Below, in pieces: positions 23,008-27,175 of a DNA stretch of 28,107 nucleotides. Numbering within the stretch: the stretch's first letter is position 1; each line of letters begins with the position of its first letter. The translations under genes and the position numbers were made by a program. The stretch comes from Candidatus Baldrarchaeum yapensis (lineage in GTDB: Archaea; Asgardarchaeota; Baldrarchaeia; Baldrarchaeales; Baldrarchaeaceae), in assembly GCA_016840465.1 (NCBI GenBank), contig JAEOSH010000023.1:1-28107 (forward strand), in the 5' to 3' direction. The notes beneath the pieces were generated by a model. The model searched no databases and was not told the DNA's origin. It saw nothing but the letters and a program-made list of their open reading frames with translations.

Positions 23008-23017
23008 GGTGCATAGG

Positions 23018-23296
23018 GTGCCGGTCGAGGCGTGCAAAATAGAGTGTAGTAAACTGGCGATGGATAAAGGGACCGAGTTGGTAAGCAGGCTTGCAGAGTT
23101 CATGAAGGAGAAACTGAAGGGCTATGACGTAAAGGTTGATGGAACCACAGTGATAGTTTCGGGAGAAGGTGGAGTGACAAAAAGGAAGGTCCGCCTATAC
23201 ATAAAGAAATTTTTGCACAAAAACGAACTTAAAGACACATTTAAAGTGATCGCTGGTAACGCGGAGACATTCGTCATACATAAAATGAAAAAATGA
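23018..23296 (+). CDS. rpl22e: Ribosomal protein eL22 (L22e)-like
   Basis: IECSKL...LAEFMKEKL...KRKVRLYIKKFLHKNELKDTFKVIAGNAETFVI aligns by eye with eukaryotic RPL22 (LDCTHP...FEQFLQERI...[33 protein letters not shown]). GAGGTG precedes GTG 23018. Confidence 0.75.
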   Translation: MPVEACKIECSKLAMDKGTELVSRLAEFMKEKLKGYDVKVDGTTVIVSGEGGVTKRKVRLYIKKFLHKNELKDTFKVIAGNAETFVIHKMKK

Positions 23297-23305
23297 TGTT
23301 TTTGC

Positions 23306-25162
23306 TCAGCCCCATAGATCTTTTGCAACATCACTCAGTCCAAGCTCCTCCAATTTTTCTCTCGCCGGCTTTCCGGTCTCCCAGTCCCATTTTCTCTCTT
23401 TGTAGTATCCTCTTAGCAATGTCTCCATATCCGGCGAGAATCCTTGGGTTGCACCCTCCTTCAATGGCTCAATTGCAATTCTTGGAAGCCTGTCATCCGC
23501 CCTTGTAACCCCTAATTTCACATTAATTGCCCTCTTTAAGTTGAAAATTCTCTCCCCAGTCGTCAGTACAGTTTTTGCATCAAAGTTCCACCCTGTAATC
23601 GCAGTGAGCATTCGTGCCACTTGACTGGGCGTGTTTATCTGCGAGAACTGACATAGCAGAAGCGCATTATACAGTTCCCTGAAGTTCTGCCATCGTGCTG
23701 CCATTGCACCTTTTGCCTCGCTACACTCAAATCTGTCTCCGGCGCTGACCTTTGCCTCAAAAACATCAATACCCATGTCTATATACCAGTAGTCTGCCCT
23801 CAGGTGACATGCTCCACGTGGACTTGTCGCGTAGCACACGGCCTGGCCAGCAAAGGCCCGAGGATCATGCATGGGTATCTCGAGCCCCTTCACATGAGCA
23901 GCCTCGTCTTGACTCACCCCCAACTTCTCCGCAATTCTTTTGACACCCTCAGCAAGCAGATCCCCGATTCCTTCACGCTTTGCGATCATCTGTACGAGCT
24001 TTACTATGGTCTCGCCATCCCCCCACTTTATCTCAAGCCCCGCTTTATCCTTTGTCAGAATTCCCTTTTCATAAAGGTACATCGCAAACGCTATCGACAT
24101 TCCCGTCGATATTGTGTCGAGCCCAAAATCGTTGCAGAGATGATTTGCGTATACTATGGTGTCTAGGTCAAAGTTCCAGCACAGAGGCCCGAACGACATG
24201 ACAGTCTCGTACTCGGGCCCATCCACTTCATCAATGCCAAATTTCCCAAACTTCGTCAGCCGTCCACACCCTATGGGGCACCCATAGCACGAAACCGAAA
24301 ATACAGAGTATCTCTCTCTCAGAGCCTTCCCGTCAACCTTATCTACCGGGAAGACGCTCCGAGTAAAGTACCTCGCAGGCCCATCTCCAATATACATGGA
24401 TATGTCAGTGTATGCAGGGGTTCCAAATTCGTTTAGCAAACTAGTAAACGCAACCGAAACCAAACCTGCAGGCGAAATCGCTGCCGCCTCGAGAGCCTTC
24501 ACCTCTGCTTTTAACCGATCTGGATCTTTTATCTCCGGCCGTTTATCACCATGTACAACGATAGCCTTAAGCTTCTTTGACCCCATGACAGCACCCAGCC
24601 CGCACCTTCCAGCAGCTCTTCCATGATCGTTCATAACGGCAGCGTACTTTACGAGGTTCTCGCCTGCCTGTCCAATCGCTGCAACTCTAGCCCTCTTTTC
24701 ACCAACCTCCTTTATGAGAGTATCTCTTGTTTCGTAGAATCCTTTGCCCCAAAGGTGGGAGGCGTCCCGGATTTCCGCACTTCCATCATGAACATACAGA
24801 TAGACGGGCTTATCGGATTTCCCTGTAATAATAATTCCATCAAAACCGGTAGATTTTAGAGCAACCGCGAAAAAGCCACCACTCGTTGCCTCTCCCCAGA
24901 TGTTAGTAAGCGGAGACTTCGCACAAACAGCATGTCTTCCCGAAGATGGCACCCCAGATCCCGTGAACGGCCCTGTTATAAATGCAAGTGGGTTTTCCGG
25001 ACCTAAAGGATCTAGATCCTTCGTCATGAACCTATACAGGAGTCTTGCTGCTAAGCCCGACCCACCTATGAAGTTCTTCAAATCTTCTTCTTTTAATTCG
25101 ACAGTTTTCGTTTCCTTTTTACTCAAATCAACCCACAGAACCTTACCATGATACCCATACAT
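23306..25162 (-). CDS. aor: Tungsten-dependent aldehyde:ferredoxin oxidoreductase family protein
   Basis: KSPLT, GRAAGRCGLGAVMGSKKLKAI, CYGCPIGC, EYET, CNDFGLDTIS and RGACH. Confidence 0.93.
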   Translation of the reverse strand: MYGYHGKVLWVDLSKKETKTVELKEEDLKNFIGGSGLAARLLYRFMTKDLDPLGPENPLAFITGPFTGSGVPSSGRHAVCAKSPLTNIWGEATSGGFFAVALKSTGFDGIIITGKSDKPVYLYVHDGSAEIRDASHLWGKGFYETRDTLIKEVGEKRARVAAIGQAGENLVKYAAVMNDHGRAAGRCGLGAVMGSKKLKAIVVHGDKRPEIKDPDRLKAEVKALEAAAISPAGLVSVAFTSLLNEFGTPAYTDISMYIGDGPARYFTRSVFPVDKVDGKALRERYSVFSVSCYGCPIGCGRLTKFGKFGIDEVDGPEYETVMSFGPLCWNFDLDTIVYANHLCNDFGLDTISTGMSIAFAMYLYEKGILTKDKAGLEIKWGDGETIVKLVQMIAKREGIGDLLAEGVKRIAEKLGVSQDEAAHVKGLEIPMHDPRAFAGQAVCYATSPRGACHLRADYWYIDMGIDVFEAKVSAGDRFECSEAKGAMAARWQNFRELYNALLLCQFSQINTPSQVARMLTAITGWNFDAKTVLTTGERIFNLKRAINVKLGVTRADDRLPRIAIEPLKEGATQGFSPDMETLLRGYYKERKWDWETGKPAREKLEELGLSDVAKDLWG

Positions 25163-25173
25163 TCCTAAACACC

Positions 25174-26421
25174 TCAGAAGTCCACATCCTTACCCTCATA
25201 CGCGTATATCAACAACTTCCTTAATTCCTCCACCGACGTGGGCCTGGGGCTCGCCGGAGTTACGGCATCCTCATATGCGTACTTGGCAAGCACATCTAAG
25301 TTCTTCTCGAAGTCCTCTCTACTAATTCCATGATCCTTCAGGACATAAGACACGTCAAGTGACCTTAAGAAGTCCTTAAATAGATCGACAAGCTTCTTGA
25401 GGTACTCCTCATTGGTCTTTGCCTCTATCCCTAAATATTTCGCAAGATCTATGTAGCGATCCGTAGCCTTTGCATAGTAAGGTATAACGTAAGGTATGAA
25501 TATTCCAACCGAGATTCCATGATGTATCCCGAAGGCTTTACCAACTGCATGTCCTAAACTGTGCGTGAGAGCGGTCCCACTATTGCTGAACGCAATTCCT
25601 CCCATCGTTGCTGCGATGTGCATCTTATACCTTGCCTCCATGTCTTTGGGGTTACGATACGCACGCGGAAGGTACTTCAATATCAACTCTATTGCCTTAA
25701 GTGCAATAGCATCTGTAAACTCCGTGGCCATTGATGAGAAGTAAGCATCTACCGCATGGGCCAGTGCATCAAGACCTGTGCCGACGGTGAGTTTAGGAGG
25801 CATGCCAGCTGCAAACTCGGGTAATAATATCGCATAATCCGGAACCAACTCTAAGGAGGCAATTTCTAATTTCCGAGGTGGAGTCTGTGACGTGTCTGTC
25901 AAAACCGCAGCATAAGTCGTTTCAGAACCGGTACCACTTGTAGTCGGACACGCAACAAGCCTAGCCTTCACCCTTAAACCAACTGGAAACAGGGGATTTA
26001 ACATTTTCAGATTAGTTCCGGGTCTTTCGTAAAGAACCCATGCCGCCTTGGCAGTATCTATGACGGATCCTCCACCCACTGCAATTATAAGGTCAGGCTC
26101 GAACTTCTTCATATCCTCCGCGCACTCTTGCACAGTTTCTAGCGGGGGCTCAGGAACAGCCCTGTCCCATATCTGCACTTGGAAGCCAAAGGTTCTCAAG
26201 GACTGAGCAACCTTATCGGCGAGATGCTTGACGTATTGATCCGTTACAATGAACGCCCTCCTCCTCGTACACATGCTTGCCATCATCATCGAAAACGCCA
26301 GCAATCCTAGTTTCCCTACGAAGATCTTAGGGCAAAAAAACCATCCATAAACCTCATGAATAGCGTCTGCACCTAACATGTGCAACAGGGTTCTCATACG
26401 CTTTTCCGTATACCAGTACAC
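25174..26421 (-). CDS. Iron-containing alcohol dehydrogenase
   Basis: GGGSVID, PTTSGTGSE, DALAHAVD and HSLGH..G....HG. Start reassigned to GTG 26421 after GGAGGTG. Confidence 0.9.
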   Translation of the reverse strand: MYWYTEKRMRTLLHMLGADAIHEVYGWFFCPKIFVGKLGLLAFSMMMASMCTRRRAFIVTDQYVKHLADKVAQSLRTFGFQVQIWDRAVPEPPLETVQECAEDMKKFEPDLIIAVGGGSVIDTAKAAWVLYERPGTNLKMLNPLFPVGLRVKARLVACPTTSGTGSETTYAAVLTDTSQTPPRKLEIASLELVPDYAILLPEFAAGMPPKLTVGTGLDALAHAVDAYFSSMATEFTDAIALKAIELILKYLPRAYRNPKDMEARYKMHIAATMGGIAFSNSGTALTHSLGHAVGKAFGIHHGISVGIFIPYVIPYYAKATDRYIDLAKYLGIEAKTNEEYLKKLVDLFKDFLRSLDVSYVLKDHGISREDFEKNLDVLAKYAYEDAVTPASPRPTSVEELRKLLIYAYEGKDVDF

Positions 26422-26454
26422 TGAGGCCCACCTCCCTTTAAACTCGAGTAAACC

Positions 26455-26468
26455 TAATGTCCACATTA
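26455..26468. promoter_or_regulatory. Inverted repeat TAATGT-CC-ACATTA just downstream of the adh-aor TATA box
   Basis: Perfect 6-bp arms. A TTTATAT TATA lies on the minus strand about 10 nt upstream. Confidence 0.35.
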
Positions 26469-26648
26469 AGAATATAAACGTTTGGCTAAAAACGAACACC
26501 ATCGGAACGCCAGTGCATACGGTACTTTTGCAAATTCACAAATGCTCGAGTTCTCATTTTGTCACAGGTTGTATTACTACATCGTTTTTCATTATGCAAC
26601 GAATTAAGAAGTTTCTCGCGAAAAACTAACGAGTAAACCGCACGAAGG

Positions 26649-26927
26649 TCATCCGCCCAGAGCAAATATCCCCAACACTATCAGCATCCCGGAACTTATA
26701 ACAAGTTTTGTAACATCCCTCCCCCTCACAACTCGCCCATTCACTATCGCAACCGCTGACCCCCTTAGAGCACGCTTCTTCCTCTCAAATACCCTGCGTT
26801 CAAACTCCTCGCCATACTTGTCACATAGAAACTCTAGGACATCGACAAGTGAGCGAAACATGCCAGCTGGCAGTCTATCTTCAATTTTTCTGGTCAAATC
26901 ACGTAATGTCGCGAGATATCGGATCAC
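26649..26927 (-). CDS. MoaD/ThiS-like ubiquitin-fold sulfur carrier (atypical C-terminus)
   Basis: IRYLATLRDLT, VLEFLCDKYG, AIVNGR and terminal GG. Adjacent to adh-aor. Confidence 0.55.
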   Translation of the reverse strand: MIRYLATLRDLTRKIEDRLPAGMFRSLVDVLEFLCDKYGEEFERRVFERKKRALRGSAVAIVNGRVVRGRDVTKLVISSGMLIVLGIFALGG

Positions 26928-26958: not shown

Positions 26959-27019
26959 TTGCGTCAGTGTGAGCTGAGCCAGTCATCAAATCCTCTTCTG
27001 TTCGCCTCATCATCCGCAA
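26959..27019 (-). ncRNA. Box C/D methylation guide sRNA with two guides to the 23S rRNA peptidyl-transferase centre
   Basis: Minus strand reads TTGCG-G-ATGATGA (C)-GGCGAACAGAAG-AGGA (D')-TT-TGATGA (C')-CTGGCTCAGCTCACA-CTGA (D)-CGCAA, with a 5-bp terminal stem. Guides are complementary to the conserved CUGUUCGCC and GUGAGCUGGGUU of 23S rRNA. Confidence 0.88.
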
Positions 27020-27175
27020 ACACCGAATTAGTACACCGAAATTTTATCTTCCACAAATATACTTAAGCTACACATAATAGCTTTTCGCTAACTTCGCTTA
27101 AGTTGCTTTATCGCTTACAGACGAATGCCTACTCAGAACTTTCGAATATCACTAGGGTAGTCTGCTATTTGGCAG

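Follow-up and report, generated by a model that had tools for sequence, protein, structure and literature searches.

We sought to determine whether a short intergenic segment of the Candidatus Baldrarchaeum yapensis genome, read in an earlier note as a dual-guide box C/D sRNA, specifies a single RNA for two 2′-O-methylations in the catalytic centre of 23S rRNA, at U2552 and A2577 (E. coli numbering), and whether such an RNA could replace the enzyme RlmE. The segment occupies the minus strand of the window (the entire 28,107-nt stretch of DNA analysed here) from position 27019 to 26959, where 248 bp separate an nrdG2-like gene of the radical SAM type (28039-27176) from a moaD-like one (26927-26649), and the boxes, guides and stem that can be read from its sequence make up a 61-nt box C/D sRNA gene, its ends being inferred from the terminal stem (Table 1). 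As in archaeal C/D sRNAs generally, the terminal boxes C (RUGAUGA) and D (CUGA) lie about 50 nt apart and enclose two guides, each at the upper end of the usual length of ~10-12 nt; the D′/C′ combination AGGA/AUGACUG, non-consensus yet paired, is predicted to fold into a K-loop with tandem G-A pairs and a short stem; and both guides are complementary to the rRNA of the host, with a Watson-Crick pair at the N+5 position. In orthologues, the terminal stem differs from that of the host and is shorter, and, judged by eye, a purine run and an A/T-rich element are found at a comparable upstream distance. These boxes, together with the host 23S matches and the orthologues described below, bear out the identification of the RNA as a dual guide.

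Table 1. Parts of the predicted guide RNA gene and its surroundings, in window coordinates
Feature	Position	Strand	Remarks
Box C/D guide sRNA gene, 61 nt	26959..27019	-	Intergenic, moaD-like and nrdG2-like ORFs on either side
Terminal stem, 5′ arm UUGCG	27015..27019	-	Pairs with 26963-26959, 5 bp
Terminal stem, 3′ arm CGCAA	26959..26963	-	Pairs with 27019-27015
Box C AUGAUGA, consensus	27007..27013	-	Same in 14/14 related RNAs, but part of their search pattern
D′ guide, 12 nt	26995..27006	-	9 Watson-Crick pairs with 23S 2551-2559; A at 26999 opposite U2552
Box D′ variant AGGA	26991..26994	-	Register backed in 14/14 by D′/C′ covariation
K-loop linker, 4 nt	26987..26990	-	Between D′ and C′
Box C′ variant AUGACUG	26980..26986	-	C and U of this box pair with D′ G and A
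D guide, 12 nt	26968..26979	-	Pairs with 23S 2574-2584; U at 26972 opposite A2577
Box D CUGA, consensus	26964..26967	-	From the sequence
Possible BRE/TATA-like element	27040..27052	-	~21-33 nt upstream of predicted 5′ end; weak, by eye

No Rfam family was matched by the sRNA at the gathering score, and the search up to E 10 yielded sub-threshold matches only, mostly to C/D RNAs on its own strand and coordinates. None of the named C/D families (sR1-sR60, snR71, snR52) reached its threshold: the best was yeast snR71 with 15.6 bits, so far below its gathering score of 60 that homology is not shown, and the archaeal sR families scored 9-14 bits. Thermodynamic folding (z 0.48) was uninformative, as is to be expected for K-turn RNAs.

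The target sequences that the earlier note had taken from consensus rRNA are indeed present in the 23S rRNA of the host (contig C59:1031-4195), and complementary to both guides. The pairs formed by the D′ guide are contiguous and leave its three box-adjacent bases (AAG, positions 1-3) unpaired with the target, and the D guide forms eight Watson-Crick pairs and then one G-U, one G-C and another G-U pair. At N+5, the D′ guide faces host LSU U2775 and the D guide A2800; these bases, 25 nt apart, correspond to E. coli U2552, in the A-loop, and A2577, as claimed (the numbering was checked against the E. coli row in the alignment of PMC4644070). When both guides were compared with host 23S rRNA, the assembled parts of 16S rRNA (which is assembled only in part) and the 24 tRNAs found, the U2552 and A2577 sites were the top matches; other candidate targets in the 16S parts and tRNAs scored lower and were rejected. 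The D′ duplex, with its 9 bp, is weaker than those of most guides of the host genome.

Orthologues of the sRNA were found in all four sister genomes, i.e. those of the same order, and on four metagenome contigs. In the sister genomes the sRNA directly follows ileS-rpl22e, on the opposite strand; in the window, ileS, rpl22e and the sRNA keep this order and orientation, but an aor-adh-moaD block lies between them. This block (23306-26927, minus strand), which consists of aor (618 aa), an iron-ADH gene and the moaD-like gene, separates rpl22e from the sRNA, its neighbour in the sisters; as there are 32 nt from the end of the sRNA to the moaD-like start downstream, a common transcript of sRNA and block is possible. 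The rpl22e gene itself (23009-23296, plus strand) codes for a homologue of ribosomal protein eL22 (PF01776) and stands right after ileS, as in the sister genomes. Syntenic conservation spans two families, between which the loop and the flanks have diverged but the guides and boxes are retained. The core of the D guide and the A2577 register persist in 7/7 aligned sequences from the host's order, and position 2551 shows a compensatory change, the host guide having G against C2551 and that of sister G001, the one sister with an available 23S rRNA, having A against U2551.

A wider pattern search extended to 131 Asgard genomes recovered RNAs sharing the D′ guide also in a family assigned to Njordarchaeales by the names of its cluster members and in a second family, f16 (L085-L089, L092 and L102, from genomes G312-G317 and G023). 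Convincing U2552 guides in these 131 genomes were confined to the two groups and the host's order, and none was convincing in the D slot. The Njordarchaeales and f16 RNAs have the D′ guide, the U2552 register and covarying D′/C′ boxes in common with the host sRNA, but their D guides point to U2580, G2578 or outside this region, and they lie in another gene neighbourhood. Such a combination of one D′ guide with varied D guides fits the reshuffling known for archaeal guide modules. A 23S fragment from G314 was left out of the comparison; it has two guide mismatches, lies at a contig end and may be contamination. Searching GTDB-wide with the exact guide-pair pattern returned three genomes of the host's order and 13 other, bacterial matches that look like chance, although RNAs with a variant A-loop, a different C box or the two guides swapped would escape this pattern, and the pairing is therefore not shown to be unique to the order.

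The D′ register was the weak point of the U2552 assignment, because the AAGA found three bases upstream of AGGA would select U2555. In 14 related RNAs, guide positions 13-16 read AGGA, GUAA, GCGA, GUGA or, in genomes G317 and G023, canonical CUGA, and the C′ boxes change in step with them (AUGACUG, AUGAACG, AUGAGCG, AUGAUCG, AUGAUGA). In the U2552 register, 14/14 of these RNAs have both D′/C′ stem positions either paired or occupied by the usual U-U; they are kin and represent about five lineages or independent types, and therefore do not amount to 14 independent tests; other registers reach at most 8/14 on any criterion. The pair types are A:U/G:C, G:C/U:A, G:C/C:G, G:C/U-U and C:G/U-U, all of them at guide position 13-16. 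By this covariation the D′ register is clear, with U2552 as the predicted target. The sister genomes have GUAA as their D′ box, in which the sheared G-A pair lacks its G.

The boxes C and D, the variant D′ box and the 5-bp stem described in the earlier note all stand; the supposedly perfect C′ box was mis-registered by three bases. With AUGACUG (26986-26980) as C′, both spacers are 12 nt, the loop has 4 nt and C′ forms Watson-Crick pairs with D′, whereas UUGAUGA (26989-26983) would leave stem positions unpaired, lengthen the spacer to 15 nt and shrink the loop to 1 nt, or to 0 nt in G312. The correction leaves both targets unchanged. As the D′/C′ boxes vary by compensatory Watson-Crick pairs, searches based on consensus boxes mis-register or miss such RNAs. 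The AGGA/AUGACUG pair itself recurs in four host sRNAs with unrelated guides, namely C9:10786(+), C30:2023(+), C38:23485(+) and the present one, C32:27013(-); the other three are strong candidates with guides of 10-13 paired bases. The orthologues in sister genomes use GUAA/AUGAACG instead, which suggests that a K-loop module was copied within the host genome, or that there is a local binding preference.

Taken as a whole, the sequence, the host 23S complementarity, the conservation, the covariation and the protein genes are best explained by a double guide, and we consider it quite probable that both U2552 and A2577 are methylated through the host sRNA. In the archaeal model (PMC4644070), L7Ae binds C/D and C′/D′ and is joined by Nop5 and fibrillarin, and 2′-O-methylation takes place at the base that is paired five nucleotides upstream of D or D′. 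The gene would be transcribed as an archaeal double-guide box C/D sRNA and fold into a C/D kink-turn and a C′/D′ K-loop with a non-consensus, Watson-Crick-paired stem; an RNP assembled with L7Ae, Nop5 and fibrillarin would then pair with two pre-23S segments 25 nt apart, the A-loop of helix 92 and the strand around 2574-2584, and, following the N+5 rule, methylate U2552 through the D′ guide and A2577 through the D guide. The sRNA may also keep this region open during assembly, in a chaperone role.

The sRNA can hardly be viewed as a replacement for RlmE, because the genome encodes an RlmE-family protein too, as the check proposed in the earlier note revealed. This FtsJ-family protein of 197 aa (contig C64:7861-8451; PF01728, E 9e-59) has the K-D-K-E catalytic residues when aligned to E. 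coli RlmE (FtsJ), and scores 249.7 bits with TIGR00438 (cut-off 300), 150 bits with E. coli RlmE, 137 with Spb1/FTSJ3 and 134 with a tRNA Nm32/34 enzyme. The gene is present in 4/4 sister genomes, and, with the host protein as query, matches were obtained in 51/61 Asgard genomes; none was found among these 61 in the Njordarchaeales and f16 genomes with a U2552 guide. Families f10 and f13 (G012, G015, G025, G035) yielded neither RlmE nor a clear U2552 guide. Since a convincing guide was found in only three groups, two of which lack an RlmE match, the host's order is the sole case of co-occurrence in the sample. In yeast, snR52 and Spb1 likewise coexist: snR52 makes Um2921, while Spb1 is responsible for Gm2922 and serves as a back-up for Um2921 (PMC11121408), and the RlmE of a halophile has been proposed to carry out both the U2552 and G2553 methylations (PMC2584109). 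By analogy, the guide might make Um2552 and a Spb1-like enzyme might act on G2553 and back up U2552, a division of labour that we put forward only tentatively and regard as unlikely; if true, the snR52/Spb1 arrangement would have a precedent in archaea. The host's order thus offers a test case for an archaeal counterpart of the yeast redundancy.

The presence of the enzyme also opens the way to another reading, in which the sRNA methylates A2577, its D′ arm binds the A-loop as an anchor or chaperone only, and the RlmE-family enzyme makes Um2552. The intact K-D-K-E residues and the occurrence of the gene in all four sisters agree with it, as do the degenerate D′ box (AGGA, or GUAA in the sisters) and the short D′ duplex; however, the D′ register, the 12-nt spacer and the compensatory D′/C′ pairing are kept throughout the order, the same AGGA/AUGACUG pair borders well-paired guides in three other host sRNAs, and the related RNAs of Njordarchaeales share the D′ guide where RlmE was not found, which together make an arm devoted to binding unlikely. 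Still less probable is that the true D′ box is the upstream AAGA, with U2555 (C2556 in the sisters) rather than U2552 as the target. In that register all nine guide bases would pair, and C2556 is a predicted guide target in two archaea, but a 9-nt spacer would be needed, boxes ending in RA occur in 1/14 and stem pairs in 1-3/14 of the related RNAs, the C2556 register (ACGA) reaches 5-6/14, and the ACGA of the sister genomes is ACAA in one orthologue; both alternative boxes were ruled out by the register test on the 14 RNAs. That the boxes are arranged by chance, or that the element is a relic and silent, is scarcely credible: 72 looser C/D-like architectures exist in the host genome, but only 43/200,000 shuffles of both guides produced two such sites ≤50 nt apart (a joint probability of 2e-4), so that ~0.015 chance cases would be expected, and the synteny over two families, with guides and boxes outlasting loop and flanks, also speaks against it.

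Comparison of the double guide with previously described RNAs places it in a known class, as both targets have already been predicted in archaea and double guides usually have closely linked targets. For U2552, a guide is predicted in five of the seven archaea surveyed, helices 90-93 being a hotspot, and one RNA with two closely linked targets is a common pattern; the novelty that the earlier note attached to a single RNA covering both sites is therefore lost. In Methanopyrus kandleri, the D′ guide of sR17 is directed at alignment position U2826 (E. coli U2552) and the D guide of sR56 at A2851 (E. coli A2577) (Dennis et al. 2015, PMC4644070). Targets, slots, guide cores and N+5 register are the same as in the host, but in M. 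kandleri they are divided between two RNAs whose partner guides are different, whereas the host has them on one, with a non-consensus D′/C′ pair. Nanoarchaeum equitans sR10, Sulfolobus acidocaldarius sR7 and Pyrococcus abyssi sR25 are also double guides with one guide predicted for U2552; unlike in the host, the partner target is E. coli 2606 in N. equitans and alignment G2783 in S. acidocaldarius. A U2552 and an A2577 guide on one RNA were not found in the literature compared, the Pyrococcus/Thermococcus sets lying outside this comparison, and a literature search for Asgard C/D sRNAs returned no paper.

The yeast equivalents named in the earlier note are correct: Um2921, made by snR52 with Spb1 as back-up, and Am2946, made by snR71, are the nucleotides equivalent to U2552 and A2577. 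The snR71 Rfam consensus has a 10-nt guide core and register in common with the host D guide, but snR52 and snR71 are separate, longer snoRNAs, in contrast to the one 61-nt RNA of the host. Guides to one conserved site converge, and their likeness is no proof of descent. The value of the locus lies mainly in annotation, in that an Asgard lineage gains a previously unannotated guide RNA, along with the predicted methylation of two nucleotides of the catalytic centre that it would share with eukaryotes.

The host genome (2.27 Mb, 96% complete) encodes fibrillarin, Nop5 and L7Ae, and the host is probably a thermophile, judging from the 65% G+C of its 23S rRNA. The fibrillarin, nop5 and RlmE-family genes lie within ~7 kb of contig C64 (1307-8451), near genes that, named by eye, resemble trm1, rps8e, SRP19 and gar1. 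The genome contains about 20 additional C/D sRNA candidates whose guides are directed at rRNA or tRNA, a lower bound owing to the strict pattern used, and several of them have two strong guides. Elsewhere in the window, a tRNA-Gln(CUG) gene is located at 2912-2987 on the plus strand.
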